DNA from: an uncultured bacterium
Lineage (GTDB): Bacteria; Fermentibacterota; Fermentibacteria; Fermentibacterales; JCC-6
Direction: 5' to 3'
NCBI GenBank assembly: GCA_964607515.1
Contig: CAZSKU010000003.1
Span: 72,175 to 136,174, forward strand
Length of the DNA: 64,000 bases
In this document: positions 6,955-59,277 of the stretch, one piece after another
How the letters are laid out: each line of letters opens with the position of its first letter
Position numbering within the stretch: position 1 is the stretch's first letter
Made by a program: the position numbers and the translations under genes
The notes under the pieces: generated by a model
Told to the model about the DNA's origin: nothing
What the model saw: the letters and a program-made list of their open reading frames with translations, nothing else
Databases searched by the model: none

Positions 6955-7251
6955 GTGTCCGGGCCGGGCTGTAAGCCGGGTTCTGTACCGCTTTCGCGGC
7001 GGCGGCCATCCGTCTTAGCGACCAACCCGGAGGTCCAGGAGGACGGGCCGCCCTCCAGCCCTTGCGGGCTTCCCTCGCTATTTGGCCTTGCACCGGACGG
7101 GGTTTGCCCCTTTTCACCCTCCCCTCGGGGAGTCATCGTCTCTGTGGCACTTTCCGCGCGTTGCCGCGCCGGGGGGTTTCCCCCCGCGTCCCGCCCTGCG
7201 GAGCCCGGACTTTCCTCTCCCGTTGAGGGAGCGACCGCCCGCCCGGCCCGG
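6955..7251 (-). ncRNA. rnpB: RNase P RNA (bacterial type A, compact)
   Basis: Minus-strand transcript contains GAGGAAAGUCCGGGCUCC (P4 5' strand), GCAAGGCCAAAUAG, and ACAGAACCCGGCUUACAG (P4 3' strand); 5' GUCCGGGCCGGGC pairs with 3' GCCCGGCCCGGAC as P1; about 297 nt. Confidence 0.8.
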
Positions 7252-8084: not shown

Positions 8085-8095
8085 TGCAGGGCTGG

Positions 8096-8168
8096 TGGGC
8101 GGGACAGGGCTCGAACCTGCGACCCCAAACGTGTGAAGCTTGTGCTCTACCAACTGAGCTACCCGCCC
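8096..8168 (-). tRNA. tRNA-Val (anticodon CAC)
   Basis: Minus-strand RNA GGGCGGGUAGCUCAGUUGGUAGAGC...CAAGC-UUCACAC-GUUUG...GGUUCGAGCCCUGUCCCGCCCA; cloverleaf folds with a 7-bp acceptor stem. Confidence 0.85.
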
Positions 8169-8179
8169 TTCGTCACCAT

Positions 8180-8256
8180 TGGTGGGCCCACCTGGACTCG
8201 AACCAGGGACCAGCCGGTTATGAGCCGGCGGCTCTAGCCAACTGAGCTATGGGCCC
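8180..8256 (-). tRNA. tRNA-Met (anticodon CAU; elongator type, or tRNA-Ile2 with lysidine)
   Basis: GGGCCCAUAGCUCAGUUGGCUAGAGC-C-GCCGG-CUCAUAA-CCGGC...GGUUCGAGUCCAGG-UGGGCCC-A-CCA; G1:C72 pair and no G29-G31 run, so not the initiator; CCA encoded. Confidence 0.8.
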
Positions 8257-8337
8257 GTAGGAAGGCAAATCTATCCGCGGAACCCCTTCCCGTCAAGTTG
8301 CGCGGGGTCTCCGGCCGGGTTAGATTCCCCCGGCGAA

Positions 8338-8423
8338 GCCGGAGTGGCGGAACGGCATACGCGGTGGACTCAAAATCCATTGTCCGCAAGGGCATGAGGG
8401 TTCAAATCCCTCCTCCGGTACCA
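8338..8423 (+). tRNA. tRNA-Leu (anticodon CAA), type II with long variable arm
   Basis: GCCGGAG...GUGGA-CUCAAAA-UCCAU-long variable arm-AGGGUUCAAAUCCCU-CUCCGGU-A-CCA; divergent from the minus-strand tRNA pair. Confidence 0.85.
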
Positions 8424-27750: not shown

Positions 27751-27763
27751 TCCGGAGGAGATT

Positions 27764-27840
27764 GGTCGGGGCGAGAGGATTTGAACCTCCGGCCTCCTAG
27801 TCCCGAACCAGGCGCGCTAACCGGACTGCGCTACGCCCCG
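27764..27840 (-). tRNA. tRNA-Pro (anticodon CGG)
   Basis: CGGGGCG-UAGCGCAGUCCGGUUAGCGC-G-CCUGG-UUCGGGA-CUAGG...GGAGGUUCAAAUCCUCU-CGCCCCG-A-CCA. Confidence 0.85.
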
Positions 27841-27859
27841 ACCGCAACAGGACTGAAAT

Positions 27860-28402
27860 CTACAGAAGAAAGCCCAGCGCCGCAAACACCCCGGAAACGA
27901 TAAGGGTCACCACGGCTCCGGCCGCCGCAACCCCCAGGGCTATGGCCGGCAGGGCGAGCCTTCGGGGGATTCCGAAGAGGAAAGCCGCCACGCTTCCGGT
28001 CCAGGCGCCGGTCACCGGAAGGGGTATCGCCACGAAAACAGCCAGGCCCAGGGCCCTGTACTTCAACACTTTGGCTCCCGCCTTTCTCCTGGTCCTGTCG
28101 AACAGCCACTGGAAAAAAGCTCTGAAGGGCTTCCAGCGGGAAAGGAAACGGCTTACCGGATCGAGAAACCAGAGAATGAAGGGAACCGGAATCATGTTCC
28201 CGGCCACCGCCAGCAGGTACACCTTCCACCATGGCCACGCCCAGGTGTCGGCCATCACGGTCATGGCCACGGGAATGCTCCCCCGGAGCTCTGTAATCGG
28301 CAGGCCGGAGATGAGAAGCATCACCAGTTCCCCCGGAACTCCCGAGAGCCATCGAATGACCGACAGCGCGGCGGTCTCACCCATTCCAGCCGGCCTTTCC
28401 AA
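27860..28402 (-). CDS. small multi-drug export family membrane protein (COG2426-like)
   Basis: About 170-aa polytopic membrane protein; start may be the downstream MGETAAL. Confidence 0.5.
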   Translation of the reverse strand: MERPAGMGETAALSVIRWLSGVPGELVMLLISGLPITELRGSIPVAMTVMADTWAWPWWKVYLLAVAGNMIPVPFILWFLDPVSRFLSRWKPFRAFFQWLFDRTRRKAGAKVLKYRALGLAVFVAIPLPVTGAWTGSVAAFLFGIPRRLALPAIALGVAAAGAVVTLIVSGVFAALGFLL

Positions 28403-29024
28403 GAAGGGGAACGAAGGCGCAACTGAAGGAGTTCCGTTCCTCCATGCCTCCGGGTCCCTTCCTCAGCACCCTGAATGCCTGGGTGTTCCTGTCCCCCACG
28501 GGTATCCCCGCCAGACCTCCGGGCTTCAACTGCTCCTCCAGCCCCCCGGGGAGCGCCGGAGCGCCGGCGCTGTAAAGCAGTGCGTCGTACGGGGCCGAGG
28601 ACGGCCAGCCCCGGGAACCATCCCCGAAATGGACCACGGCGTTGTTCACCCCGATCCTGTCGAACAGGGACCTGGAAGCATTTGCCAGTCCAAGCACCAT
28701 CTCCACGCACACCACCCTGTCGAAGAGTCTCGAGGCCACCGCCGCCAGGTATCCGCTGCCGCTTCCTACCTCGAGCAGGATTCCCCCGAAGGAATCAGCC
28801 ACCCCCGAAAGCATCCTCAGCACCGTGGCCGGCTTGCTGATGGTCTGGCCGAAGCCGATGGGCAGCGCCGCGTCGGTGTAGGCCAGGTGGGCGAACGCCG
28901 GGCTCACGAAAAGGTGCCGGGGAGTGTCCGCCATTGCTGCCGCCACCCGGGAATCAGCCTCGGGAAAGAGGTCTCTCAGCCGCCGTGCCATGTCCCTGGC
29001 GGCGGCCAGATTCAGCGGTTCCAT
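28377..29024 (-). CDS. pcm: protein-L-isoaspartate O-methyltransferase
   Basis: SAM-binding motif [14 protein letters not shown] and QTISKP; start placed at MEPLNL (ATG 29022-29024) because the longer ORF would overlap tRNA-Pro. Confidence 0.8.
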
Positions 29025-29042
29025 GCTTCTCCTGTTGGAAAA

Positions 29043-29060
29043 AGAGGCCCGAAGGCCTCT
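29043..29060 (-). terminator. Terminator of tRNA-Pro(GGG): AGAGGCC-CGAA-GGCCUCU followed by UUUUCC
   Basis: Hairpin plus U-tract immediately 3' of the tRNA on the minus strand. Confidence 0.6.
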
Positions 29061-29068
29061 TCCTCCAA

Positions 29069-29145
29069 TGGTCGGGGCGACTGGATTCGAACCAGCGACC
29101 ACTTGAACCCCATTCAAGTGCGCTACCGGACTGCGCTACGCCCCG
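29069..29145 (-). tRNA. tRNA-Pro (anticodon GGG)
   Basis: CGGGGCG-UAGCGCAGUCCGGUAGCGC-A-CUUGA-AUGGGGU-UCAAG...GUUCGAAUCCAG-UCGCCCCG-A-CCA. Confidence 0.85.
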
Positions 29146-29159: not shown

Positions 29160-29555
29160 CTAATCCTGCCCTGAACCGCCGTCAACCTTCATGGGGTCGC
29201 GGCCGAGGATGCCTATGATCTCTCTGATCTCCGCCGCCACGGAGTCCAGAAGGGCGTCACCGGGGGCTGCCTGGGAGGGCTGCCCGGGCTCCAGTTCCAG
29301 GGCCATCTGGCCGTGTTCCCTGCGGATATCCTCCAGCTTCTTCCGGGCGCCCTCAATGGTGTATCCCTCCTCGTACAGCAGTTTCTTGATGTACTGAAGG
29401 GTCCTGACGTCGCCGGGCCGGTAGACCCGATTGCCCGCCTTGTTCTTGTGGGGATTGAGCATGGGAAAGGCTGTCTCCCAGTACCGGAGGACGTGGGGCT
29501 TCAAGTCCAGCATCCGGCAGACTTCGCTTATCGGATAATAGAGCCTCTCGGTCAT
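29160..29555 (-). CDS. MerR-family transcriptional regulator (CbpM/HspR-like)
   Basis: N-terminal MerR HTH ([21 protein letters not shown]); 4-nt overlap with the upstream J-domain gene. Confidence 0.7.
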
Positions 29556-30361
29556 TTTCCGCGGCCTCCGAAGAGTTTCTTCCAGATCGGGGCTTTCCGG
29601 CCTTCCAGCCGGCCGAGTTCCTCCAGTGCCTTCATGGCCCCCTCATGGTCTTCCTGCCATGACAGGGCGTTCTCGAGACTCTTTCTGGCCATGGCGAACT
29701 GCTCGGCCTTCATGTAGACCCTTCCCAGCATGACGTGGTTTTCGGGGTTGAAGTACTCCGCCTCGCACGCGCTCTTGAGAAATTCCGCCGCCTCCCGGAG
29801 CCTTCCCCTGCCCTCGGCGGCCATGGCCTGAAGCCTTCTCACCTCGGGATCCCTGGGGAATGTCATGGCGGCCCGATTCAGCAGGTCTCCGGACCTCCAG
29901 AAGTCGCCTTCCCGGATCATCCTGCCGGCGGCGGACTTCAGCCTCGCCAGGGTCGCCGGAGGCATGGCACCTCCGGTGGCCTGACCCTCCTTGGGTCTCG
30001 GCCTGGCCGGCTTCACCGGCGTTGGAGCGGCCGCTTCCTCCTCCGGGGGCTTGTCCTCCGACGGCTCTGGCGCAGGCGCCCTGCGGGGCTCCGGAACCCG
30101 GGTGATAACGGGTTCCGGCTCCCAGGGAATCGTGTCGGCTATCTCCTCGTCGTACTTCCGTCTCTCCTGGGAATCGCTGAGCACCAGATAGGCCTCGTTG
30201 ATCCGGGCGAACTTGGCCACGGTTTCCGGGGAGTCGCCGGCAACGTCGGGATGGAGCTTTCTGGCCAGCTGGAAGTAGGCGTGGTCTATGGCCTCCCTGG
30301 AGGCCTTCCTGCCGATTCCCAGCACGTGGTAGTGGCTGCCGTAGGACTCCTCCCCGGGCAT
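29552..30361 (-). CDS. J-domain (DnaJ-like) protein with Pro-rich linker and TPR-like C-terminus
   Basis: J-domain HYHVLGIGRKASREAIDHAYFQLARKLHPD (HPD motif) at the N-terminus. Confidence 0.75.
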   Translation of the reverse strand: MPGEESYGSHYHVLGIGRKASREAIDHAYFQLARKLHPDVAGDSPETVAKFARINEAYLVLSDSQERRKYDEEIADTIPWEPEPVITRVPEPRRAPAPEPSEDKPPEEEAAAPTPVKPARPRPKEGQATGGAMPPATLARLKSAAGRMIREGDFWRSGDLLNRAAMTFPRDPEVRRLQAMAAEGRGRLREAAEFLKSACEAEYFNPENHVMLGRVYMKAEQFAMARKSLENALSWQEDHEGAMKALEELGRLEGRKAPIWKKLFGGRGK

Positions 30362-38599: not shown

Positions 38600-41500
38600 C
38601 TACCTGTGTTTCACGATGACCAGGGTTCTGTCGTCCGCCTGGGGAGCCGAACCGCCGTGGTTCTGCACCTCCTCCAGAACCCTTCTCACGATCTGGGACG
38701 AGCCCAGGTCCATGTGCCGCCGAACCGCCGCCACCAGGCCGTCCATGGAGAACTCCTCGCCCCGTTCGTCCATGGTCTCGGTGATACCGTCCGTGTAGAG
38801 AGCCAGCACGTCGCCGGCCCGGATTTCGAGCACTCCGTAGTCGTAGGAGACATCGGGTCCGAATCCAAGAATGAGTCCGCCGGTGTCCAGAACCTCTGTA
38901 TCGCCGTTCCTCCTCACCAGCACCGGCGGGTTGTGGCCGGCGTTAACGTAGGTGAGCCGTCCCGACTCGTGGTTCAGAACGCCGTAGAAAAGACCGATCA
39001 GACCGGTCGCCTGGGTGCCCGTGAGCATGGCGTTGTTCACCCGGTGCATCACCTCGCTGATGCTGAAGATGCTCTGGACGTTGGCCGAGAGGCTTCCCTT
39101 GAGGCCGGCCATGGTGAGGGCGGCGGGAATCCCCTTGCCGGTCACGTCAGCCACCGCCAGCCCCAGGTTGTTCCCGGACAGGTGGAAGAAGTCGTAGTAG
39201 TCGCCGCCCACCTCCCGGGCCGGCCTGTAGTACGCCGCGATGTCGTAGCCCTCCACCGCCGGCGGCGCCGAGGGCATCAACTCGTACTGAATCATTCTGG
39301 CGGTACTCAACTCCCCGGCGATTCCCCCGCCGCTGTCCAGCCTGCCCAGGAAGAGGTCCGGCATCTTCGCCCTCAGGGCGCTGCTGTTGGTGATGTCGGG
39401 GTGCCTGGTGACAATGCTCACCGCGGCCAGTCTCACCTCTTCCGCGGAATCCGTGAGAAGGTCCGCCAGGTGTTCCTCCAGAGCGGGGCTGTCCACACAG
39501 CCCAGCCTTTCCACCGCCCGAAGAGCCTCCAGTCTCACCGGGGCCGACGGGTCCCCCAGGGCCACGGCGATCAGGGGCATCCGGTCCTGGGGGGAGAGGC
39601 TGACCGACCGGAAGAATCCGGCGAAGGTCCTCAGCCTCACAAAGGAGTCCTGGTCGTGGATCAGCTTTTCAGCTATGGAGTAGCGCCGGGTCTCCTCCCG
39701 GCCCCAGAATTCCCCCCCCGCCTCTCCCGCCGCGGCCCTCACGGACCTTTCGGGGTCCCCGGCGAGGCTCTCCAGGAGGGTCCCGGTCTCCTCGGTGCAC
39801 ACTCCGAGTTGTCTGGCGGCGGCGGCCACCGCCGCCCTGACGGTGCCGGACTGGTCCTCGGCCAGCCGTCCGAGGGCCTGCGCCGCTTTGGAGCCCAGGG
39901 ACTCACGATTCCAGAGGAGGAACCAGGGAAGCTTTACCCTGGCCTCCACCCCCTTCTTCCCGATGATCCTGTCCACCGCTTCCAGGGAGACCTCGGCGAT
40001 GTCCCTGCGGCCTGAGGCGAGAAGCCTGCTCAGGGCCTCACGGCCGCCGTAGGACTCGTCGGAAAGCACCCTCACCACGACCGTCAGCTGGCCGTAGGAT
40101 TCGATGATTCTAAGGTAGGGCAGCGCCATCTCGGCGATGGACCTGTCCCTGGGCATCCGTTCGGTGACGATGCGCCAGAGGGTATGCCTTTCCCGGCGGT
40201 TCAGCCACTGGTAATTCATCAGAAGGTACTGGGCCACCCCCTTCAGATCGGCGTCGGGAATGTCGGCGATCATGGCGTCCCGAACCTCCGTTGAAAGGTA
40301 TCTTATCCGGGAACCGAGCTGAAATGCCACCAGCGCCCGGCCCCCCTCCCTGAGCCTCTGGATGAGTACCCAGAGAAGGTCTCCCACTTCCCCGGTAACC
40401 CCCTCCAGCTTCCTGTTGGTAAGGCCCCAGGCGAGGAATCTGAGGTCTTCCGGGTTGCCCCCCTCCAGAGCCTCGTTCAGGACGTCCCTCTCCCTTTCCG
40501 ACATCTCCGGGAAATTCCCTCCGATGTGCACCAGCACCTGCCTCCGCACCACCGGGGTCGGGTCCTCCAGGAGCATCCCGTAGTAGCCGCCGGGGTCGTC
40601 CCCCACGGACCACGTCTCCATGCCGTACATGAAGGCTTGCCTCACCCCCGGAGACGACCCGTCTAGGAGCCTCCGGAGGATGTCCTCCATTCTGGTTTCC
40701 TTCCTCACCCAGTACATGGCCAGGCTCCGGGCTAGCTCCACCCGCAGCGGCTCGCGGCCGGATTCCACGATGAAGCGGCAAAGCCCGAGGGCCTGGGTGT
40801 CGAAGCTCTTCCGGTTGAGGATCAGCTTGTTGAAGAAGTCGCCGAGGTTGACCGCCTCGGTCTCCCTTGAGGCAGCGAAAAGCAGGGCGGCCTTCTTCTC
40901 CCTGGAGAGGCTGCTGTAATGCTGGACCGCCGCGAAGCCGGCCCTTCGCATGGGGGACTCCTGGCTGCCCAGCAGGGTATCCAGCACCGCTGTCACCACC
41001 GCGGAACCCTGCATTATCAATTCCTGGGCGCCCATGTCCACCGCCGCCATCACTGTGGTGTCGCCGGCGCACAGGTGCATTTCGCCCCGGAGTATCAGCC
41101 TCCTGAAGGGGGGATTGCCCAGGGATGCGTCCGAGGTCTCGTACCTTTTCTCGAGGCTTCCCACTCCGGCGAAATCGCCGGCCAACAGAAGGTTCAACCT
41201 TTCCCACGCTTCCAATACCGCCCGGCGGAAGAGGGATTCGGGAACGATGGGCTCGAAGAGGGACAGCATGATCAGAGCCGCCTGACCGAAAGGGTCCGTG
41301 TCCCAGAACCTTGCCAGCGCCCGCTCCCCCTCCCGGAGCCTCCAGGACCTGTTCTCCGCGGGCTGGGGAAGGATGAGGTGTTTCCCCTCGAAGAGGCTGA
41401 ACACCGCCTCCATCTTCGAGGAAGAGGAGCAGACCACCAGCCTTCGGCGCTTGTCCGTGGCCCGGGCCATGGTGGTTATGAAAACGTGCCACAGGTGGGC

Positions 41501-42211
41501 CGGGTAGTCGCCGGCGTACCTGCGCATGCTGTCTAGATCGAAGAGTATGGCGCAGTCCTCGGGCCCCCTCAGGATGAGGTCCACCTCCTGGGCGTTCACG
41601 TCGCCCTCCACAAGCTCGATGGGAAGCATCCCCGCCCGGGCCGACCTGGCGATGAGTATCCTGGCCAGGGTGGTCTTTCCGGAACCCAGCGGGCCCGAGA
41701 GGCATATGAAGCCGTTTTCCTGAAGGATCTGCTCCGCCGTCCGGATGATCGCCGGATCTATGGTATCCTCCCGGAGAAGGCCCCATCCGTTCAGGAGATC
41801 CTCTCCCGCGGGATACGGAAGGGTGTCCCGCCGCACCGACGCCAGCCAGGCCGCCACCGGTCCGGCCATCAGGTGCCTGGCCTCCTCAAGGGTGCCGAAA
41901 CGCCAGAAGAGCCCCTCCGCCTCGAGCCTGACCGCCACCCGGTCCGACGGGTCAATTTCACCCGCCGCCAGGGCGGCCACGGGGATCCTGCTGCGAAATG
42001 AGCTGAAGTAGGCGTGCCGAAGGGCGGCGGAGGGCGTTCCGTTGCACACCAGCAGCACCGCGTCGGGGTGCGAGTCGTCCGGGGTCACTGCCATGGAGTC
42101 GGCCCACCGGGGATGAGGCAGTCTGGCGGCTTCGGAGATCACCACGCCGTCCGCGCCGAAAGGGAAGGGTGCTTTCTCGGCCAGCACCCGAAGCCTGAAG
42201 ACGCTGTTCAT
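38600..42211 (-). CDS. 1203-aa multidomain protein: N-terminal P-loop NTPase, central HEAT/ARM repeat array, C-terminal PP2C (SpoIIE/RsbU-type) Ser phosphatase
   Basis: Walker A LSGPLGSGKTTLARIL; repeated DPxxxVRxxAxxxLG HEAT-like units; PP2C region GYDIAAYYRPAREVGGDYYDF...VADVTGKGIPAAL...YTDGITE...ADDRTLVIVKH. Confidence 0.8.
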   Translation of the reverse strand: MNSVFRLRVLAEKAPFPFGADGVVISEAARLPHPRWADSMAVTPDDSHPDAVLLVCNGTPSAALRHAYFSSFRSRIPVAALAAGEIDPSDRVAVRLEAEGLFWRFGTLEEARHLMAGPVAAWLASVRRDTLPYPAGEDLLNGWGLLREDTIDPAIIRTAEQILQENGFICLSGPLGSGKTTLARILIARSARAGMLPIELVEGDVNAQEVDLILRGPEDCAILFDLDSMRRYAGDYPAHLWHVFITTMARATDKRRRLVVCSSSSKMEAVFSLFEGKHLILPQPAENRSWRLREGERALARFWDTDPFGQAALIMLSLFEPIVPESLFRRAVLEAWERLNLLLAGDFAGVGSLEKRYETSDASLGNPPFRRLILRGEMHLCAGDTTVMAAVDMGAQELIMQGSAVVTAVLDTLLGSQESPMRRAGFAAVQHYSSLSREKKAALLFAASRETEAVNLGDFFNKLILNRKSFDTQALGLCRFIVESGREPLRVELARSLAMYWVRKETRMEDILRRLLDGSSPGVRQAFMYGMETWSVGDDPGGYYGMLLEDPTPVVRRQVLVHIGGNFPEMSERERDVLNEALEGGNPEDLRFLAWGLTNRKLEGVTGEVGDLLWVLIQRLREGGRALVAFQLGSRIRYLSTEVRDAMIADIPDADLKGVAQYLLMNYQWLNRRERHTLWRIVTERMPRDRSIAEMALPYLRIIESYGQLTVVVRVLSDESYGGREALSRLLASGRRDIAEVSLEAVDRIIGKKGVEARVKLPWFLLWNRESLGSKAAQALGRLAEDQSGTVRAAVAAAARQLGVCTEETGTLLESLAGDPERSVRAAAGEAGGEFWGREETRRYSIAEKLIHDQDSFVRLRTFAGFFRSVSLSPQDRMPLIAVALGDPSAPVRLEALRAVERLGCVDSPALEEHLADLLTDSAEEVRLAAVSIVTRHPDITNSSALRAKMPDLFLGRLDSGGGIAGELSTARMIQYELMPSAPPAVEGYDIAAYYRPAREVGGDYYDFFHLSGNNLGLAVADVTGKGIPAALTMAGLKGSLSANVQSIFSISEVMHRVNNAMLTGTQATGLIGLFYGVLNHESGRLTYVNAGHNPPVLVRRNGDTEVLDTGGLILGFGPDVSYDYGVLEIRAGDVLALYTDGITETMDERGEEFSMDGLVAAVRRHMDLGSSQIVRRVLEEVQNHGGSAPQADDRTLVIVKHR

Positions 42212-42218
42212 TCGAAGG

Positions 42219-42635
42219 TCAGGTCAGAGGCCAGATAAGGGTTGCCCTGGTCTTCCCTTCGGGAGTGAGATCGAACTCGACCCATTTGGCAAGATTCCTG
42301 GCAATCAGTATGCCCCTTCCCCGGTCGTCCAGGAGTTCCTCCCCCTCGCCGGGACGATGGCCCAGCTCCCTTCCGGGGTGCCAGCTGCCCCTGTCCTCCA
42401 CCTGGAAGGACACCCTGCCGGGCAGCACGTCGGCCCTGACGGTGAGCGGCCTGGAGGGATCCATCGAGTTGCCGTGCTTCATTCCGTTGCGGACCAGTTC
42501 CATCACGGCGATGGACATACTGGTCAGTTCGTCGGGGACCACGCCCGCGGCCATGCCCACGCTTTCCACGAAGACCTGCACGGTTTCCAGCATCCGCTCG
42601 TCGCTTGGAACCGTGAGGCAGATCCCTTTGAGCAC
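42219..42635 (-). CDS. RsbW-like anti-sigma factor / Ser-protein kinase (GHKL ATPase)
   Basis: N-box AVMELVRNGMKHG, G1 VEDRGSW, G2 GRGILIARNLA; GTG start at 42633-42635 placed one nt after the STAS gene stop. Confidence 0.7.
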   Translation of the reverse strand: MLKGICLTVPSDERMLETVQVFVESVGMAAGVVPDELTSMSIAVMELVRNGMKHGNSMDPSRPLTVRADVLPGRVSFQVEDRGSWHPGRELGHRPGEGEELLDDRGRGILIARNLAKWVEFDLTPEGKTRATLIWPLT

Positions 42636-42636
42636 C

Positions 42637-42978
42637 TCATCCCTCCAGGGCCGCAAGGGCCTCTGTCTCGTCGGTAAAGGTCTCGAAGATGGTGATGAGC
42701 TTGGTGATGATGAACAGCTCATGGATCTTCTTGGTGGCGTTGAGAATGACCATCCTTCCTCCGGCCCTGGAAACCGTCGTGTGGCCGCTGACCAGAACCC
42801 CGAGACCGGAGCTGTCCATCCAGGAAACCCCCCCGAGGTCCACGACTATCTTCTTGTAGTCGTTATTGACGGCGCTCTCGAAGGAGGCCTTGACTTCCAT
42901 CAGATCCGGCCCGCTGATGACCTTTCCACCGAGTCGGATGACCCTCACCGCACCCTTGCTCTCCTCGTTGATCTTCAT
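42637..42978 (-). CDS. STAS-domain anti-sigma-factor antagonist (RsbV/SpoIIAA-like)
   Basis: 113-aa STAS fold with the conserved phosphorylatable Ser region DLGGVSWMDSSGLGVLV; GGGAGG is 5 nt upstream of ATG 42976-42978. Confidence 0.8.
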   Translation of the reverse strand: MKINEESKGAVRVIRLGGKVISGPDLMEVKASFESAVNNDYKKIVVDLGGVSWMDSSGLGVLVSGHTTVSRAGGRMVILNATKKIHELFIITKLITIFETFTDETEALAALEG

Positions 42979-43071
42979 GATCCCCTCCCGGGTTGAATTG
43001 TGACCGCACACCGGCAAACCATAGCCTTTAGCATAGGCAAACCGGGGACTCCGGGCAAGAAGGGGAAGGGG

Positions 43072-44076
43072 TCAGGCGCACACCAGAAAGTCCCTTCCCT
43101 CCACCAGCCCCCGGCCGGCGAGGTAACACCGGATCCGCGCCCTGGCTCCAGGTTCCCGGGACGCGGCCACCACGGGAATCCCCGAATAGTCGTCCAGCCC
43201 TTCGGGACCCACCACCGGGATTCCCCGGAGAAAGCCGCCGGTGCCGTTTCCTCGGGTTCCGATGAAGGCTTCCACACGAAAGCCGCTGCGGATCATCCAG
43301 AGAGAGAGCCTTCTGGCGGTCTGGCCGCTCCCGGCTATCACCACCCTCCTCTCCCTGAGAAATGGAACCCGGTCCAGGTACATGGCTTTGGTCCTGTAGA
43401 AGGCGGTCAGCGAATAGTTCGAGGACTTTCTGCTGAACCGGTCGGGCCTCTCCCTCCAGGCCAGCAGATTTCTGGGAACCTTGCCGAACCTGAAACCCAG
43501 GGACCATAACCGCAACCAGAGCTCGTAGTCCTCCGGCAACCCCTGGTCCCGGTAGCCCCCGGCCCCGATAACCTCCTTCCGGTGGAAAAAGGCTCCGGGA
43601 TGGGGCACCGGGCTCTCGATGAACATTTCCCTGGTGATGTCACCGTGGTTCACCAGGCTGTTGATCCATGCCTCGTACTTCCGATACCCGCCGCTTAGCG
43701 CGTTCCTCGGAAAGCACCTGACCAGGCACGACACCACGGACCGGGAACCCAGGCTCCCGGCCAGGTCCAGCTGCAGGGAAAGCCTGTCCGGGTGGGAAAA
43801 GTCGTCGGCGTCGAATCTGGCCACCCATTCCCCCCGGGCCTCCTCGAGCCCGGTGTTCAGGGCGTCCACCAGCCCCCGCCCCCGGGAGGAGATCAGCCTG
43901 AACCTGGAATCCCGGCGGCAGAACTCCCGGACTGTATCCGGCGACCCGTCCGAGGATCCGTCATCCACCAGCACAGCCTCGAACCGGTCCATCCTCTGCC
44001 GGGCCAGTGACTCCAGGGCGCCGGGAAGCCAGCGGGCCTCGTCCCGGAAGGGAAGAACCGCGGAAACAGGAATCAT
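43072..44076 (-). CDS. family-2 glycosyltransferase with extra C-terminal Rossmann-like domain
   Basis: PVSAVLPFRDE...AVLVDDGSSDGS (GT2 DxD region) and FDADD; the C-terminal about 90 aa (VVIAGSGQTARRL...VVGPEGLDD) resemble the N-domain of bacterial sugar transferases / NeuD. Confidence 0.7.
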   Translation of the reverse strand: MIPVSAVLPFRDEARWLPGALESLARQRMDRFEAVLVDDGSSDGSPDTVREFCRRDSRFRLISSRGRGLVDALNTGLEEARGEWVARFDADDFSHPDRLSLQLDLAGSLGSRSVVSCLVRCFPRNALSGGYRKYEAWINSLVNHGDITREMFIESPVPHPGAFFHRKEVIGAGGYRDQGLPEDYELWLRLWSLGFRFGKVPRNLLAWRERPDRFSRKSSNYSLTAFYRTKAMYLDRVPFLRERRVVIAGSGQTARRLSLWMIRSGFRVEAFIGTRGNGTGGFLRGIPVVGPEGLDDYSGIPVVAASREPGARARIRCYLAGRGLVEGRDFLVCA

Positions 44077-44858
44077 CGGGATTCCAGAGCCGACCTGAGA
44101 TCCTCGGTGGTGAAGGCCGGGGCGAAGCACAACAGCCCGACGCACGCCTGGGCGTATGGTCTGCCGGGGTCGGGCAGGTGGTTCTCCTCCATCAACGCCG
44201 CTCCACTGGGGTCTTCCGGATCCACCAGGTCCACCCCCTCCCCGCCGGCCAGAGCGAGGGCCTCCCGGTAAAGCGCCACGGTGAGCGGATCACCCGGGGG
44301 ACCCACCACGTATATGTGGAGTTCCTCCCGTGTGCCGTCGGAGGGGATTTCCAGCGCCGGAGCCCCTTCCAGAAGCCCCCGGAACCCCTCGCCGGCAGAT
44401 GCCCCAACGATCCTTCCCGTCTCTTCGCCTCCGGCCAGAAGAATGGTCACGGGCAGCACTGGGGGAAGCCGGAACCTTTCCCGGACCCTTTCCGCCTCCT
44501 CCGGGGAAAGCCATACCACCGGCATGGCCACGGGGGAACCTTCGAGAAAGGATTCCAGGGTCCCGAGGAACGGATCGCCCAGGGAGACCGCCGCGAAATC
44601 GGCCCTTCCCCGGTATTCGGCGTGAAGGCTGTCCAGCGTCGGCAGCTCATGGACGCAGGGGCTGCACCAGGTGGCCCAGAAGTTCAGAAGTACCGGCCGT
44701 TCCCCGGCCGCCTCCAGCAGGCTGTCCAGGGAACCCGCTCCCTTCAGCAGCGGCCCTCCTTGGCCGGACGGCCCCACCCCGGAGCCGGCTCCGTGCCTGA
44801 GAACCGGAACGATGAGGAGCAGGGTGGCGGGAATCCACCAGGGAAAACTACGGGCCAT
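44073..44858 (-). CDS. TlpA-like thioredoxin-fold thiol:disulfide oxidoreductase
   Basis: Signal peptide; WATWCSPC active site. Confidence 0.75.
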   Translation of the reverse strand: MARSFPWWIPATLLLIVPVLRHGAGSGVGPSGQGGPLLKGAGSLDSLLEAAGERPVLLNFWATWCSPCVHELPTLDSLHAEYRGRADFAAVSLGDPFLGTLESFLEGSPVAMPVVWLSPEEAERVRERFRLPPVLPVTILLAGGEETGRIVGASAGEGFRGLLEGAPALEIPSDGTREELHIYVVGPPGDPLTVALYREALALAGGEGVDLVDPEDPSGAALMEENHLPDPGRPYAQACVGLLCFAPAFTTEDLRSALESR

Positions 44859-45705
44859 GGCTGATAGCCTTCACCGGGCACACCTCGAGGCATTTCATGC
44901 AGCGGATGCACTCCGGGGAACTCTGCCGGCGCCATATCTCTATGCCCATGGGGCAAACCGACCCGCACATGCCGCACCTGGTGCAGCGGTCCGACACTCT
45001 CATCCTGAGCACCGCGGCCCGGCCCAGGAGCCCCCAGGCGGCGCCCAGCGGGCACAGATACCTGCAGAAGGGCCTCTCCACGGATACCCCCAGGATCAAT
45101 ACCGCAACGGCCAGGGCGGATTTCCACGCGAACAGGAAACCCGTGCGGAAGACCCCGCCGGTATCCCCGGACACCAGGGGCCATCCCGCCAGGGAGGTTC
45201 CAGCGGGACAGACAGCCTTGCAGAACCAAGGGTCTCCGGTGGTCTCCGGGGACGCCCTGAAAAGCAGGGGGAGGAGAACCAGAAAAAGCGCCAGCATGAC
45301 GTACTTCAGGGGTCGGAACCCCTCGGGAATCCGTATGCCTGGAAAGGGTATCCGGTAAAGAAGGTCCTGTATGAACCCGAAGGGGCATATCCATCCGCAG
45401 GCGAGCCTTCCTCCGGCAAGCCCCACGGCGGCGATGAACCCCAGGGGCGCCAGAAGCGCCAGGGCGTCGGGCCTGCCGGAGGTCAGGGCGGCCATCACTC
45501 CGGGCGATGCCAGAACTGCCTGAAGGGATCCGGCTGGACACGACAGAACCGCCGAGGGGGTGCTGTAGCACCAGATCCCCGGCACGAAGAACATCTTGGA
45601 GACTCCCTGATAGATGACGCCGGTGATCCAGCCGGAGAAGTGCAGGTTGGCCCCCAGGAAAGAGGCTGCCTGGACAGCGGTTCTGGTGGGGCTCAGCCCG
45701 GTCAT
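44848..45705 (-). CDS. 4Fe-4S-binding membrane protein (NapH/MauN-like)
   Basis: Polytopic membrane segments plus C-terminal CxxCxxCxxxCP clusters (CTRCGMCGSVCP, CIRCMKCLEVCP); start at MTGLSPT because the longer ORF runs over tRNA-Cys. Confidence 0.65.
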   Translation of the reverse strand: MTGLSPTRTAVQAASFLGANLHFSGWITGVIYQGVSKMFFVPGIWCYSTPSAVLSCPAGSLQAVLASPGVMAALTSGRPDALALLAPLGFIAAVGLAGGRLACGWICPFGFIQDLLYRIPFPGIRIPEGFRPLKYVMLALFLVLLPLLFRASPETTGDPWFCKAVCPAGTSLAGWPLVSGDTGGVFRTGFLFAWKSALAVAVLILGVSVERPFCRYLCPLGAAWGLLGRAAVLRMRVSDRCTRCGMCGSVCPMGIEIWRRQSSPECIRCMKCLEVCPVKAISHGP

Positions 45706-45829
45706 CCCACTCCGATGCACTCGAGGCAGACGTTCACCGCCTTGCTGAGAATCACCAGCGGGTCGCCAAAGAGGTAGCCGGCGGCGGTCAGGGCCAGGGC
45801 CGCTGTCAGAAGCAGCACCCTGGGAAGGA

Positions 45830-45904
45830 TGGAGGCGGCGACCAGATTTGAACTGGTGAATGGTGGATTTGCAGTCCACTGCCTTCCCACTTGGCTACGC
45901 CGCC
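45830..45904 (-). tRNA. tRNA-Cys (anticodon GCA)
   Basis: GGCGGCGUAGCCAAGUGGGAAGGC-A-GUGGA-CUGCAAA-UCCAC...GUUCAAAUCUGG-UCGCCGCC-U-CCA with the U73 discriminator typical of tRNA-Cys. Confidence 0.85.
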
Positions 45905-47768: not shown

Positions 47769-47845
<77 letters not shown>

Positions 47846-54375: not shown

Positions 54376-54414
54376 AACGCCCCGGAGGACACTTCCCCCG
54401 GGGCGTTTCCTTTT
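54376..54414. terminator. bidirectional terminator between convergent genes (AACGCCCCGG-11nt loop-CCGGGGCGUU, A-tract 5', U-tract 3')
   Basis: 10-bp GC stem with UCCUUUUA on plus and the complementary A-tract read as U on minus. Confidence 0.7.
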
Positions 54415-54679
54415 ACCGGCTCCCGCAGCCTCCGCAGCCGCCTGCGCCGCAGGGCGCGGCGACTTCCCGGACAGGCTTGCACACGTACGCCAAATCGTCC
54501 GAGCAGGAACAGGAATCCGCGCACCCGCAGTCATCCCCGCAGGTGCACTCCCCGCCCTCCAGGCACCCGCAGTCCGGGGTGCATTCGCAGTCGCACTCCC
54601 CGCAGCGCTCGGGGGGATCCCCCGGAACCGCGAATGCCAGGGCGGCCGCCACCAGGGCCGCTACCGCCAGCTTTCTCAC
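54413..54679 (-). CDS. small secreted cysteine-rich (metallothionein-like) protein
   Basis: Signal peptide MRKLAVAALVAAALAFAVPG then 16 Cys in about 65 aa as CxC/CxxC clusters (CGECDCECTPDCGCLEGGECTCGDDCGCADSCSCS...CGAGGCGGCG); own AT-richer upstream region and terminator. Confidence 0.55.
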   Translation of the reverse strand: MRKLAVAALVAAALAFAVPGDPPERCGECDCECTPDCGCLEGGECTCGDDCGCADSCSCSDDLAYVCKPVREVAAPCGAGGCGGCGSR

Positions 54680-54777
54680 AGGAACTCCTTTCCATGGGGT
54701 TCACAGAGGACTCTATACCATTATGGTAGGAATATGTTCCCGGACCGCTATGCCTGCCATTGTGCCGGCAGACCTTT

Positions 54778-55164
54778 TCACTTGAACAGGAGCCTGACTT
54801 CCTCTTTCATCAGGGTCACCAGGGTGAAGACCCCGAGTATGGTGCCGAAGGGCATGAAGATGCACTCGATACCCGCCATGACCATGCAGAAACCGTGCTT
54901 CCTCCTGCCCCGGAGCCTTCTTCCCGCGGCGATGACGAACCCAGCCAGGGTCCAGCCCACGGTGATGGCCACGGCGGCAAGAACCACGAAGACCAGCCCC
55001 ATTATCGGCGGGGGAGGGTTTTCTGACTCGGGAAAGTCGCCCGTCATGAAGACTATGCCCATTGTGAGGTGAATCAGGAATATGGAGGCCCCCAGGATCA
55101 TCAATACGCCCACCACGTAATGAAAGATTCCCAGCAGATCCAGCACCCTCTCGTCCTGCGTCAT
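54778..55164 (-). CDS. hypothetical 4-TM membrane protein
   Basis: Four hydrophobic helices; PPPP linker. Confidence 0.45.
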   Translation of the reverse strand: MTQDERVLDLLGIFHYVVGVLMILGASIFLIHLTMGIVFMTGDFPESENPPPPIMGLVFVVLAAVAITVGWTLAGFVIAAGRRLRGRRKHGFCMVMAGIECIFMPFGTILGVFTLVTLMKEEVRLLFK

Positions 55165-55180: not shown

Positions 55181-55723
55181 TCAGAATCCGTTTCCCCGGC
55201 CGGAGACCCGGCCCCTTCCGTCGAACCGTACGCCTTCCATCTCCAGCAGGGCCCTCTTCATGGCTCTTCCGCCCTGGTACTCGCCGGGAAAGCCGTCCGA
55301 TCTGACAGCCCGGTGGCATGGAATGATAACCGGAAACGGGTTTCCCGCCAGGGCGTTTCCCACCGCCCGGGGACCGGTGGACAACCGGCGGGCCAGTCCG
55401 CCGTAGGTGGTTGTCTTCCCCCGGGGAACTCCGTACTCCTCGAGAAGCACAGACTTCCGGAACTCTCCCAGCCCGTCCATGTCGGCCAGCTCCAGGGAAA
55501 AAGTCACCGGCTCCCCTTCAAGAAAGGCCCTCATGTTCCGGACAAGCCGGTCCACCTCCCGGCAGCTTCCCTGCGCGGCGCCCGGAAACACCGTCGACGC
55601 CGCTTCCGTTCCCGAAAGGCCGGGTCGGGAGAGGAATACTCTTACCACCCTGGGGCCGGGCCTCCATACCACCGCCACCGGGCCGAAATTCCGGTGTTCC
55701 AGGGTCTCGATGCCCGTCTTCAC
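55181..55723 (-). CDS. ogt: methylated-DNA--protein-cysteine methyltransferase
   Basis: Active-site PCHRAV and C-terminal DNA-binding domain. Confidence 0.85.
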   Translation of the reverse strand: MKTGIETLEHRNFGPVAVVWRPGPRVVRVFLSRPGLSGTEAASTVFPGAAQGSCREVDRLVRNMRAFLEGEPVTFSLELADMDGLGEFRKSVLLEEYGVPRGKTTTYGGLARRLSTGPRAVGNALAGNPFPVIIPCHRAVRSDGFPGEYQGGRAMKRALLEMEGVRFDGRGRVSGRGNGF

Positions 55724-56580
55724 CTGGCCCGTCCCATCACCAGGAAGCTTCCCGCGGCGGTGAGCACCAGCCCGGCCCAGAACGCCGGGGGCTGCCGCTC
55801 CCCCAGAAATCCGGCGGCCAGGAGTGATGCCACCGCGGGTTTGAGCATGAAAACCATGGAGGCCGCCAGGGCGCCCATCCTTCTCACCGCCCGGATGAAT
55901 GTGAGGTAGGCCAGACCGCTGACCCCAACCGAAAGGTACAGCGTCGAAATGACCGGGCCCGGCCCGGCCAGCAGGGGCGCGGGAGAGAAGGAAACCCCCG
56001 TCAGCGCCATGACCGGCGCCAGGACGGCCACCCCGGCGGTGAAGGAGACTGCGTTGACCGTGAAGGGGTCGGTGCTCCGGGATACCTTCCTTCCCAGAAC
56101 CGTGAATACAGCGAAGGCCGCCGCCGAGACCACCGCCAGGGCCGTTCCCCGGTCCACAGACAACCGGTGAAGGCCGCTCACCAGGGCCAGCCCCGCCAGC
56201 CCCGCGAGAAGCCCGGCGACCTGCCTCGGTACCGGTCTCTCCATCCCCGCCGCGGCGGAGATTCCGAAGACCAGCACCGGGTTGGCGCAGAACACCGTGG
56301 CCGCCACGCCGGCGGAGGTGAGTTTCACCGCGGTCTGCAGCAGGGTCATGGCCACGGTGATGTTCACCACCCCCATCACCGCCAGGGTGATCAGGGTGCG
56401 CCGGCTCAGGGCCCGCAGGGTGGACGGGCCCCGGCGGCGGAGCAGGATGGCCGCCAGTACCGCGGCCCCGGCAAGGAACCTCCAGAAGGTCAGGGTCACC
56501 GGCTCCACCACGGCCATCAGGGGCTTGCTGACCACCTCCATGGAGGCGAAAAAGAAAAGGGTCACAAGAAAGTCAGCCAT
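55720..56580 (-). CDS. EamA/DMT-family transporter
   Basis: Ten predicted TM helices, duplicated EamA halves. Confidence 0.75.
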   Translation of the reverse strand: MADFLVTLFFFASMEVVSKPLMAVVEPVTLTFWRFLAGAAVLAAILLRRRGPSTLRALSRRTLITLAVMGVVNITVAMTLLQTAVKLTSAGVAATVFCANPVLVFGISAAAGMERPVPRQVAGLLAGLAGLALVSGLHRLSVDRGTALAVVSAAAFAVFTVLGRKVSRSTDPFTVNAVSFTAGVAVLAPVMALTGVSFSPAPLLAGPGPVISTLYLSVGVSGLAYLTFIRAVRRMGALAASMVFMLKPAVASLLAAGFLGERQPPAFWAGLVLTAAGSFLVMGRAR

Positions 56581-57325
56581 CCCGCCTTCTTCCGAAGAGC
56601 TTCAAGGCGCCCGGAACCACCATGAGCAGCAGAACCGCGGTGAGAAAGGGGGATGATTCGGGTCCGAAGGAGCCTGTTTCAAACGCCGGCCTGAAAACCG
56701 CCGGAAAACGGTACCCGCTCACCCCGAATCCCATGGCGACCCCGATGCCGGCATTCCACAGGAAGTGGGCCGCCACCGCCCCGGCCATGCCGCCGCCGGA
56801 GGCCCGGAGGAGGCACAGTCCCAAGCCCGCCAGGAAAATGTTCACCATTCCCAGGGGGTTGGAGAAGGGGTTGTTCATGTGAACCACGGTGAACAGGACC
56901 GTGGAGAGGAGGGTTCCCAGGGCGAACCTGCCGCCCATGGAAAGGGCGTCCGCCAGGAACAGCCGGAATGCCAGTTCCTCATGGACTGCGTACAGGAGCA
57001 GCGCCGACAGGGCAACGGCCCAGCCTTGCTCGAAGGAAGGCACCGCGCCCCCACGGAGAAGCTGCGCCAGGGGTATCCACAGGGCGGCTCCCACGGCGAT
57101 AGGAGCCCACTTGAAGCCCGATGCGCTCCAGCGGTTCTCTGCCCGGGGCACCAGCAGAATTGTGAGGAGTGCTGTGGGAACCATGCTCAGGGCGGACGCC
57201 GAAGCGTCGGAAATCAGCCCTTCGCCCCAGGACAGGGCCCATCGAAGAACGAACCAGAGGGCCATGCCGGCGAACGCGAAGAGCAGCCTCGGCAGGGTTC
57301 TCCGAAGGGGCGGTTCGCCGATCAC
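56573..57325 (-). CDS. CPBP-family intramembrane metalloprotease (CAAX protease / bacteriocin-immunity-like)
   Basis: EELAFR motif 1, FxxxH motif 2 (HMNN), and HxxxN/D motif 3 (HFLWN); GTG start at 57323-57325; the ORF-track N-terminal 165 aa are wrong-frame. Confidence 0.7.
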   Translation of the reverse strand: MIGEPPLRRTLPRLLFAFAGMALWFVLRWALSWGEGLISDASASALSMVPTALLTILLVPRAENRWSASGFKWAPIAVGAALWIPLAQLLRGGAVPSFEQGWAVALSALLLYAVHEELAFRLFLADALSMGGRFALGTLLSTVLFTVVHMNNPFSNPLGMVNIFLAGLGLCLLRASGGGMAGAVAAHFLWNAGIGVAMGFGVSGYRFPAVFRPAFETGSFGPESSPFLTAVLLLMVVPGALKLFGRRRDG

Positions 57326-57336: not shown

Positions 57337-59273
57337 TCAGAGAGAGGCCAGAATGTCCAGAAAGCTCTCGGAGTCCAGGCTGGCGCCGCCCACCAGGGCG
57401 CCGTCCACGTCGGGCATGGAGAGCAGGTCCGGGGCGTTCTCCGGGGTGACGCTGCCGCCGTAGACTATCCTGGTTTCCCGGGCGAAGCCGGCGCCGAAGA
57501 TGTCGCCGAGCAGTCTGCGGATCAGTCCGTGAACTTCCCGGGCCTGGTCCGGGGTGGCGTTCCTGCCGGTGCCTATGGCCCATACAGGCTCGTAGGCCAC
57601 CGCCAGGTTGTCCGGGTCCGCGTCCCTCAGATTTCCGAGGGCCGACTCGATCTGGCCCCGCACCACCTCTTCGGTCCTCCCGGCTTCCCTTTCCTCCAGA
57701 GTCTCCCCGACGCAGAGAAGCCCCTTCAGCCCGGCGGATATCCCGGCCTGCAGCTTTCCGGCCACGGTTTCCGAAGACTCTCCGAGGATGCGGCGTCGCT
57801 CGCTGTGGCCCGCCAGGAACCACCGGCAGCCGGCTTCCAGGAGCATTTCGGCGCTCACCTCGCCGGTGAAGGCGCCCTTCTTCTCCCGGAAGACGTCCTG
57901 CCCCCCCAGAAGCACGCCGGCTTCCTCAGCTGCCTCGGTCAGACCGGCAAGGAGGGTGAAGGGCGGGAATAGAACCGTTTCGGCGCCGAAGCCGACCGAG
58001 TTCCCGGTCCGCATGGCTTCTAGAAAGTCCAGGGCCCCTTCCCGGGTTCCGTTCATCTTCCAGTTGGCGCCCATCAGGGGCCTGACCCCTTCCACGGCAA
58101 TGTGCTTCAGAGCCGGCAGGTCGTTGCCCTGCAGGAGTTCCAGGCTGGCCCCGCCCCCGGTGGAGGCGTGGGTGACCCGGTCCAGAACCCCCGCCTCGGT
58201 GACCGCCCGAAGGCTGTCTCCGCCGCCCACTATGGTGACGGCTCCCCGGGAGGTTGCCTCGGCCAGCATCATCGCTGCCTCCCGGGTGGCGGCGTCGAAG
58301 GGGGGAACCTCAAAGAGGCCCATGGGTCCGTTCCAGACCACGGTGCCGCTTCTGCCGATGACTTCCCGGAAGAGGGCCACCGACCCGGGCCCGATGTCGT
58401 AACCCGCCGTGCCGTCAGGGATTGCGTCCCATGGAACGGTGACTGGTTTCTCCTCCGGGGAAGGGGCGCAGACGTAGTCCACCGGAAGCACCAGGTTCAC
58501 CCCGGCCTTTTCGGCGGCTCTCATGATCTCCCGGGCGGTCTCAACCCGGTCCTCCTCCACCAGGCTGCGGCCCGTGGAGACACCTTTCGCCCGGACGAAG
58601 GTGAAGGCCATGGCACCCCCCACCAGGAGGTTGTCGAGCCTTGGAAGGACGTGCTGGATCATGGCAACCTTGTCGCTTACCTTGGCCCCCCCCATGAGCA
58701 CCGTGAAGGGCTTCCTCGGGTGAGTCACCATCCTTCCGAAGGCTTCCAGCTCCTTCTCCACCAGAAGGCCTGCGTACCCTCCGCCCATGACCGACGGGAC
58801 TCCGGCCGTGGAGGCGTGCTCCCGGTGGCACGTTCCGAAGGCGTCGTTCACATAGATCTGGGCCAGTTCCGCCAGTTCCCTGGAGAAAACCGGGTCGTTG
58901 GCCTCCTCCCCGGGATGGAATCGGAGGTTCTCGATGAGAAGCACCTGTCCCGGGGCCAGCCCCCGGGCCATGGCCTTCACCCTGGGTCCGGAAACCCGGT
59001 CTATGAAGAGCACCTCGTAGTCTTCCAGGAGTTCCGACAGCCTTTCGGCCACCGGGGCCAGGCTGTACTTGGGCTCCGGCGCTCCCTTGGGTCTTCCGAG
59101 GTGGCTGCACAGGACCACCGGGCTCCCCTGGTCGAGAACGTACCTGAGGGTCGGCAGCGAGGCTATAAGCCTGCCGTCGTCCATAACCCGGCCCTTCTCC
59201 ACCGGGACGTTGAGGTCCGCCCGGAGGAACACGGTTCTCCCGCCGGTTCTGGTCTCCCGGATGGACGGATACC

Positions 59274-59277
<4 letters not shown>
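57337..59277 (-). CDS. pgk: fused phosphoglycerate kinase - triosephosphate isomerase
   Basis: PGK N-half (FLRADLNVP...GGGASLELL) continues without a stop into a complete TIM (GANWKMNG...AYEPVWAIGTG...YGGSV); GTG start 59275-59277 overlaps gap stop (GTGA). Confidence 0.85.

Follow-up and report, generated by a model that had tools for sequence, protein, structure and literature searches.

The window analysed here, a 64,000-nucleotide (64-kb) stretch of DNA from an uncultured anaerobic-digester bacterium of the Fermentibacterota lineage (GenBank assembly GCA_964607515.1, contig CAZSKU010000003.1, positions 72,175 to 136,174 of the forward strand), carries on its reverse strand a gene for a small cysteine-rich protein, which is a real, conserved and monocistronic orphan gene of one lineage. 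The composition of the product and the way in which it has been conserved suggest that it may, as the thiolate protein of a strict anaerobe, resemble metallothioneins and sequester chalcophilic metals in the periplasm, a reading to which we assign a probability of roughly 0.45. The gene is a clean example of a fast-evolving orphan of a single lineage whose function can be read from the pattern of selection. Its product, MRKLAVAALVAAALAFAVPGDPPERCGECDCECTPDCGCLEGGECTCGDDCGCADSCSCSDDLAYVCKPVREVAAPCGAGGCGGCGSR, and the elements required for its translation are laid out as follows.

54413-54679, reverse strand: coding sequence of the Cys-array protein, 88 amino acids (aa), with a GTG start codon and a TAA stop codon at 54413-54415.
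54685-54690, reverse strand: Shine-Dalgarno sequence AAGGAG, 5 nt 5' of the GTG start codon.
54629-54679, reverse strand: signal peptide of the Sec type (type I) as predicted by rules, spanning residues 1-17, MRKLAVAALVAAALAFA; the predicted cleavage site lies before VPGD.
54503-54604, reverse strand: acidic CxC array, residues 26-59, CGECDCECTPDCGCLEGGECTCGDDCGCADSCSC, with 12 Cys.
54416-54481, reverse strand: C-terminal module, residues 67-88, C-x9-C-x4-C-x2-C-G-S-R.

An earlier note on this DNA had described an 88-aa open reading frame (ORF) with 16 Cys in CxC/CxxC arrays, and the count holds: the cysteines, at residues 26, 29, 31, 33, 37, 39, 45, 47, 51, 53, 57, 59, 67, 77, 82 and 85, form six CxC and two CxxC motifs, and all lie beyond residue 25. 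The predicted mature part comprises 71 residues, with 16 Cys, 13 Gly, 14 Asp/Glu, four Lys/Arg and a single aromatic residue, so that the richness in Asp, Glu and Gly that had been claimed for the tail is borne out, although its length is not the 65 or so residues given previously.

Such a frame might be no gene at all and simply a by-product of GC-rich DNA, the window having a guanine-plus-cytosine (GC) content of 65% and the gene itself 72%, with ORFs in alternative frames overlapping the region. Nevertheless, its Cys fraction of 0.182 (18.2%) is the highest among the 336 six-frame ORFs of at least 60 aa in the window, where the next highest value is 0.066 (mean 0.017, standard deviation 0.017, n = 336), and GC richness therefore does not explain the ORF. 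Another circumstance that could favour a chance ORF is the small number of relatives: an exhaustive phmmer search gave three further proteins, that is four at E ≤ 0.001 when the cluster of the protein itself is counted, and a word-indexed protein search found its own 90% cluster only, including an 80%-identical variant. Two phmmer relatives, of 92 aa at 53% identity and of 85 aa at 46% identity, share their exact genomic position with the most divergent match of a profile search, which returned eight clusters, each one with an examinable locus coming from the same clade.

Altogether, 12 distinct orthologues (46-81% identity) were found at the same position in the GC-rich clade of Candidatus Fermentibacteraceae (loci L009-L012, L015-L020 and L038/L039, nine loci or members entering the promoter and signal alignments), and the Cys-rich ORF is present in all loci of this clade that reach beyond the convergent dihydroorotate-dehydrogenase-like (DHOdh-like) neighbour. 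A scan of GTDB species representatives with this neighbour placed the lineage in Candidatus Fermentibacteraceae of the phylum Fermentibacterota. The conserved order runs from a phosphoglycerate kinase–triose-phosphate isomerase (PGK-TIM) fusion through genes for an Rce1-like protein, an EamA protein, MGMT and a small membrane protein to the Cys-rich gene, followed by the convergent DHOdh-like gene and an aminotransferase. In the marine Sabulitectum clade the Cys-rich, Rce1-like, MGMT and membrane-protein genes are absent from this locus, and the PGK-TIM, EamA and DHOdh-like genes are directly adjacent. Lineages whose proteins are 46-57% identical have retained the ORF together with its start, ribosome-binding site and promoter motif; the start codon is GTG in eight of the nine loci, and the AAGGAG site is conserved, with a GGAGTT core that is invariant in all nine and AAGGAGTT retained in eight. 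A length difference, checked in the DNA (a 45-bp repeat in L015), is in frame. The ratio of nonsynonymous to synonymous substitution rates (dN/dS) is 0.16-0.54 in ten pairs, below 1 in every one; these pairs give 0.07-0.14 when the DHOdh-like gene is compared. The Cys columns of the alignment are far better kept than other mature positions, as detailed below. A GC-driven spurious ORF, which the earlier note had named as the outcome that would count against it, is thus excluded for practical purposes by syntenic conservation, by dN/dS and by the extreme Cys content, and the chance left to it is negligible. An Rfam search found no RNA element within or around the locus.

The pattern of conservation within the protein is informative. 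Among nine aligned members, Cys-majority columns show 89% mean pairwise identity and the other mature columns 35%, while the signal region reaches 74%; selection thus appears to preserve the export signal and the Cys residues. The earlier note had proposed a search for homologues with conserved Cys spacing; among the orthologues the Cys columns are conserved, and neither the number nor the spacing of the cysteines is constant: the mature part contains 14-20 Cys across the family, an odd number in six of the 12 members, and the spacing varies. CxC modules have been gained and lost among the orthologues. The gene of L015 contains an in-frame tandem repeat (L015:5518-5640; 45 bp, 2.7 copies, 96% identical), adding one 15-aa CEC(A/T)EGEECTC(G/D)TSV module with four Cys relative to the otherwise near-identical gene of L010 (L010:656-934), a recent modular expansion. 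Within these variations the composition is narrowly kept, the mature parts of the 12 members having 66-90 aa, 21-27% Cys, 0-2 Phe/Trp/Tyr/His, 2-7 hydrophobic residues, 11-18 acidic and 2-4 basic residues, and 5-10 CxC and 0-3 CxxC motifs each, with CxC dominant. The mature protein lacks the residues that a hydrophobic core would need, and the AlphaFold model shows no confident fold (predicted local distance difference test score, pLDDT, 48.7) and no helix outside the signal peptide. The Cys residues are individually essential, yet the family tolerates changes in their number and parity, a behaviour more in keeping with a metal-thiolate array than with a fixed, disulfide-knotted structure.

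A disulfide-based extracytoplasmic protein has nonetheless to be weighed, either as a cross-linked envelope component or as a secreted Cys-knotted toxin or bacteriocin, possibly linked to the Rce1-like (CPBP) membrane protease. The model for the former is chlamydial OmcA, a signal-bearing lipoprotein of about 88 aa with a lipobox and roughly 14-16 Cys, whose molecules are cross-linked to one another by disulfides during an oxidising stage of development. The present protein resembles it in its length of about 88 aa, its signal peptide and its number of cysteines; it is likewise small, Cys-rich and predicted to be exported, and an ECF-like promoter, described below, would suit an envelope function. 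In contrast to OmcA, however, it has no lipobox, although the lipoproteins of this organism do have one, it gives no Pfam match to Chlam_OMP3 or to any other family, its host is a strict anaerobe and its Cys number is variable and odd in half of the members. The CPBP family is tied to bacteriocin processing and immunity, and the Rce1-like gene belongs to the same conserved block and is missing from Sabulitectum, as is the Cys-rich gene; yet the EamA, MGMT and membrane-protein genes intervene between the two, shared synteny is their sole tie, and no immunity or ABC-export genes were found in the window. A net charge of about -10 also sets the protein apart from most antimicrobial peptides, which are cationic. 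Taken together, a disulfide-based function is rather unlikely, and the antimicrobial or defensin-like option of the earlier note is disfavoured by the same net charge, by the odd Cys number in half of the members and by the variability of Cys number and spacing.

The best-conserved feature of the mature protein is its C-terminus, C-x9-C-x4/7-C-G-G-C-G-R followed by the stop codon, which is kept in ten of the 12 members, and a role as a periplasmic carrier or buffer of sulfane sulfur or polysulfide could be built on it: chains of persulfide or polysulfide would be borne by the thiols, notably the Gly-flanked C-terminal ones (GGCGGCG-SR or CGGCGR). SoxY carries sulfur on its C-terminal GGCGG arm and the Sud protein on a Cys, to which the present C-terminus may be comparable. 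Use of elemental sulfur or polysulfide has been proposed for the host lineage, whose habitats are sulfidic (PMC5030696), and the organism is predicted to reduce S0 or polysulfide. On the other hand, there are no Sox, Psr, Sud or rhodanese genes in the window and no Pfam match to SoxY, the L010/L015 clade ends in GGCNN and not in CGGCGR, and 14-20 Cys in CxC repeats are typical of metal clusters and not of single-Cys sulfur carriers. Sulfhydrogenase is a cytoplasmic enzyme, which also argues against a sulfur carrier in the periplasm. The sulfhydrogenase proposed for the lineage follows the Pyrococcus furiosus model (PMC5030696). Such a carrier is an unlikely alternative to the metal-binding array.

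Export of the protein is suggested by its N-terminus, which reads MRK, followed by a 14-residue hydrophobic h-region (LAVAALVAAALAFA, mean Kyte-Doolittle value 2.6) and by AFA|VP. With the basic residues RK in the n-region and A-F-A at positions -3 to -1, it conforms to the n/h/c and -3/-1 rules for a type I Sec signal, the only means by which it was assessed, and in these rule-based terms the earlier description of a clean Sec signal peptide is confirmed. It resembles the signal of a type IX secretion system (T9SS) substrate encoded in the same window. No lipobox Cys was found after the h-region, where the lipoproteins of the window do carry a canonical one, and the first Cys follows 8-9 residues past the predicted cleavage site; no twin-arginine motif was found, the N-termini of the family being MRKL or MKKL. 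Cleavage of the signal and export of the protein are predicted on this basis. As a region, the signal peptide is the most conserved part of the protein (74% identity against 35% for non-Cys mature positions), which is the reverse of the usual pattern for secreted proteins; besides its part in export it may serve for recognition or as an anchor that stays uncleaved.

In the terms by which metallothioneins are operationally recognized, the protein is small, high in Cys and poor in aromatic residues and carries CxC and CxxC motifs. It shares with the vertebrate beta domain, the fungal Cu-metallothioneins, SmtA/BmtA and MymT its small size, a Cys content of 21-27%, an almost complete lack of aromatic residues, the CxC/CxxC motifs, a variable number of modules and the absence of a predicted fold without metal. 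It differs from them in its Sec-type signal, in being far more acidic and in the extra C-terminal C-x9-C-x4/7-C-GG-C-G-R module; no significant match to the SmtA zinc-finger fold was found, nor to any described metallothionein sequence family. The bacterial metallothioneins SmtA and MymT are treated as cytosolic metal binders in a review of copper homeostasis (PMC7558416), and our literature searches gave nothing relevant on an exported or periplasmic bacterial metallothionein. Exported Cys-based storage of copper does occur in the form of Csp1, a Tat-exported four-helix bundle (PMC7558416). Like Csp1, the Cys-rich protein would be an exported Cys-based store, Csp1 being a multi-metal Cu(I) thiolate store of Gram-negative bacteria, but Csp1 has a Tat signal and forms rigid, pre-folded four-helix bundles and tetramers, whereas the Cys-rich protein has no twin arginine, no Pfam match and, in the low-confidence model (pLDDT 48.7), no helix predicted beyond the signal peptide.

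The bufferins, a group of modified peptides that includes BufA1/DUF2282 and BUF_6/12Cys and is controlled by sigma factors of the extracytoplasmic function (ECF) type, are Sec-exported, Cys-containing periplasmic copper binders (PMC11626156), and they offer a parallel in that a Sec signal, rule-based in the present case, precedes a Cys-containing periplasmic product of about 60-70 residues for which periplasmic metal sequestration has been proposed. They are small folded proteins in which 4, 6 or 12 Cys are conserved, compared with a variable 14-20 in the present family, and they are always encoded beside an MNIO (DUF692) enzyme and a DUF2063 partner, which convert Cys to thiooxazoles (PMC11626156). 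This precedent, which shows that a periplasmic metal binder of 60-70 residues with a Sec signal and Cys may be a modified peptide (PMC11626156), gives some substance to the idea that the Cys-rich protein is the precursor of a ribosomally made modified peptide of the bufferin or ranthipeptide kind, whose Cys would be converted by a distantly encoded enzyme; its unusually conserved signal region might then serve for recognition as well. However, among the called genes of the window and of the orthologous loci Pfam scans found no MNIO/DUF692, DUF2063, radical-SAM, YcaO or lanthipeptide enzymes, in agreement with the earlier statement that no peptide-modifying enzymes lie nearby, and in the described systems the precursor and its maturase are adjacent. 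There is also no DUF2282 match, no NCBIfam match to SCIFF/ranthipeptide precursors and no radical-SAM gene among the genes of the window. The absence of a modifying enzyme from the window disfavours this option, which we regard as distinctly improbable, and of the three functions suggested in the earlier note the metal buffer fits best.

Cys arrays of a similar kind have arisen elsewhere. The profile search also gave marginal matches to DUF1292 proteins with an inserted Cys array, and the motif E-C-T-C-G-D-D-C-x-C recurs as an insertion in these cytoplasmic proteins of low-GC bacteria (P0013-P0015) and in P0006 (L013:4425-4655), a singleton 76-aa protein with a hydrophobic N-terminus; this recurrence points to convergent evolution of Cys arrays and not to homology. 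P0006, from a low-GC context, was considered as a sign of a wider exported class and rejected, being a singleton in unrelated surroundings.

The Cys-rich gene appears to be transcribed on its own, from a short upstream spacer and towards a hairpin, the relevant elements being the following.

54714-54740, reverse strand: promoter-like bipartite motif GGAAC-N16-GGTATA, with an ECF-type -35 element (GGAAC plus a T-rich stretch) and a TGGTATA-like -10 element.
54716-54728, no strand assigned: palindrome TACCAT-A-ATGGTA inside the promoter spacer, with one match against 0.26 expected.
54376-54407, no strand assigned: GC-rich hairpin with a 14-bp stem and a 4-nt loop, between the two convergent genes.

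Both the promoter and the hairpin were missed by the terminator and promoter scanner (owing to a weak -35 element by sigma-70 rules and to the loop and tail rules, respectively) and were examined by folding and alignment. The 98-bp spacer upstream of the gene (54680-54777) has a GC content of 51%, which substantiates the AT-richer upstream region described before. It contains (T/G)GGAAC, 16 nt and (G/T/A)GTATA, an arrangement conserved in every lineage despite differing spacers: GGAAC and GTA(T/C)A are conserved in all nine aligned loci, GGAAC(C/T/A)(A/T)(T/A)T occurs in all loci with GTATA 16-17 nt downstream, and L038 has the variant GGAAC-N16-GATATA. The motif GGAAC-N16/17-GTATA has a single match in the window, where 0.04 would be expected, and is found exactly once per locus in 15 loci, always just 5' of the Cys-rich gene; it was not found in loci without this gene. 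Other promoter-like sites of the window, upstream of tRNA-Gly, the aminotransferase and a rotamase, have a -35 element of the TTGACA type, the clear promoter of this type upstream of tRNA-Gly serving as a reference for the housekeeping class. The -35 consensus of group IV (ECF) sigma factors is GGAACTT (PMC1540707), and the match of GGAAC plus a T-rich stretch to it suggests control of the ECF type. Control of the Cys-rich gene thus probably lies with an alternative sigma factor of the ECF type; its promoter could also be a housekeeping one with an extended -10 element (TGgTATAct). TGGAAC was further considered as a sigma-54 element, a reading discarded for want of GC at position -12. The palindrome recurs as TACCA-N3-TGGTA, perfect or with one mismatch, in seven of the nine loci and is absent from L010/L015; it could be an operator or simply part of the promoter.

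The convergent DHOdh-like gene, which the earlier note had placed upstream, lies in fact downstream of the Cys-rich gene, and the hairpin between them is common to both. A 66-nt stretch folded around it has a free energy of -32.7 kcal/mol (z -3.6), and an equivalent GC-rich hairpin occurs in all nine orthologous loci, with a different sequence in each; in L038 a hairpin also separates the Cys-rich gene from its upstream neighbour. Since the T-rich tail of the window hairpin is confined to the forward strand, on the side of the DHOdh-like transcript, the bidirectional terminator proposed previously is only partly borne out: the shared 14-bp hairpin exists and forms a canonical terminator on one strand only. 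The upstream neighbour differs among the loci, being the small membrane protein in most, a protein with a T9SS tail in L015 and a 3.5-kb insertion in L020. Together with the conserved promoter-like motif and the shared hairpin, this variation upholds the description of a stand-alone gene. In L020 an insertion of about 3.5 kb (L020:7290-10798) separates the Cys-rich gene from the membrane-protein homologue, the ORF that runs into the Cys-rich gene ends in a T9SS-type C-terminal sorting sequence, and the Cys-rich gene's own promoter motif is retained.

Our preferred explanation, a metal-sequestering thiolate protein in the periplasm, would work as follows. The mature protein, acidic and of about 7 kDa, would reach the periplasm of a Gram-negative strict anaerobe by way of its Sec signal. 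Candidatus Fermentibacteraceae (previously Hyd24-12, a candidate phylum) are described as Gram-negative, fermentative and without oxygen respiration, and the lineage has been found solely in anoxic habitats rich in sulfide and S0 (PMC5030696), a setting in which cysteines outside the cytoplasm would be expected to remain reduced. In the fashion of metallothioneins, the CxC arrays would then enclose chalcophilic ions such as Cu(I), Zn, Cd or Ni in metal-thiolate clusters, and the protein would act as a periplasmic metal buffer or sink. Expression from its own promoter through an alternative, ECF-type sigma factor would make it responsive to stress on the envelope or from metals. Beyond the reality of the gene, its architecture and its selection pattern, the account is inference, the reduced thiols, the metal binding and the ECF control included. 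It is possible, with odds that we place somewhat below even, that the gene represents a natural, unmodified, Sec-exported and stand-alone bacterial metallothionein, evolving by gain and loss of CxC modules, switched by an ECF factor and made possible by a permanently anoxic periplasm. The probability not taken up by the explanations discussed here falls to other thiol-based functions.

Several observations weigh against a periplasmic metallothionein-like protein. No metal-efflux, metal-chaperone or metal-sensor genes were found among the called ORFs of the window or in the orthologous loci, and the neighbours of the Cys-rich gene are housekeeping genes. Known periplasmic Cu(I) binders use Met and His and not Cys. 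The N-terminus, judged by rules, could instead be an uncleaved membrane anchor, and the unusually strong conservation of the signal peptide hints at an additional role. No Pfam family was matched at E ≤ 10 by nine members, the Metallothio* families and SmtA/BmtA (PF02069) included, and no NCBIfam family at E ≤ 1 by the protein of the window; a comparison of the family profile with the PDB gave nothing relevant. With the mature sequence as query, the PDB gave a single chain, 1DFT, the mouse metallothionein-1 beta domain, a match that is not significant (E = 2.6). While the stretch CxC-x5-CxC-x3-CxC aligns Cys for Cys with this domain, a run of five identical Cys spacings arises in 3.4% of spacing permutations and an ungapped Cys match in 5.9% of residue shuffles, and the likeness of spacing is only marginally better than chance (p about 0.03-0.06). 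The metallothionein-like character claimed in the earlier note is therefore upheld as regards composition and Cys spacing, and the likeness to mouse metallothionein-1 is best described as a resemblance of design that constitutes no evidence of homology.

The surroundings of the gene contain further features of interest. At 54778-55164 on the reverse strand, the 128-aa multi-pass membrane protein shows weak similarity to DUF4064 and a dN/dS of 0.06, with the same clade distribution as the Cys-rich gene; it was considered as an obligate partner and rejected, L015 and L020 carrying other genes at this place. The genes for MGMT (55181-55723, reverse strand) and the Rce1-like/CPBP membrane protease (56573-57325, reverse strand) co-occur with the Cys-rich gene in the GC-rich clade. 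The adjoining region at 57337-59277 (reverse strand) encodes PGK and TIM fused in one ORF of 646 aa, a fusion conserved in Fermentibacteraceae and Sabulitectum.

About 9 kb from the Cys-rich gene, at 44073-45830 on the reverse strand, an exported thioredoxin/TlpA-like protein adjoins a Fer4_5 membrane polyferredoxin, a pair that is also present in L010 and beside which a tRNA-Cys gene is located (45830-45904); the pair may be a route by which reducing power enters the periplasm. A MerR-family regulator (29160-29555) was examined as a link to metals and rejected: the only MerR-type gene of the window, it lies immediately upstream of a gene for a DnaJ-domain/TPR protein (29160-30361 for both, reverse strand), with which it pairs in an HspR/CbpM-like manner. 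A partner-switching module at 38600-43017 (reverse strand) consists of a STAS protein (42637-43017), an anti-sigma-type kinase with a HATPase_c_2 domain (42219-42722) and a third member of 1203 aa (38600-42211), which unites an nSTAND3 NTPase, HEAT repeats and a SpoIIE/PP2C phosphatase in an unusual combination. The RNase P RNA gene (class A, 139 bits) and seven genes for tRNAs are located at 6956-7250 (reverse strand), 8093-8423, 27763-29145 and 47769-47844.

Periplasmic metal buffering is otherwise attributed to Met/His-rich proteins, to the Tat-exported Csp1 bundles and to enzymatically modified bufferins. A Sec-exported, unmodified bacterial metallothionein would surprise specialists. The genomic surroundings offer no partner that would indicate a particular metal or pathway. 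If the proposed function is correct, it would provide a third route to thiolate-based metal sequestration in the periplasm besides Csp1 and the bufferins and would extend metallothionein biology to the extracytoplasmic compartment of anaerobes, a plain Sec-exported Cys array showing that these organisms can use unprotected thiolates outside the cytoplasm. It would also supply bioremediation or metal recovery with a compact metal-binding module that is secreted naturally, and it bears on the handling of trace and toxic metals by abundant digester and sediment bacteria in sulfidic environments.

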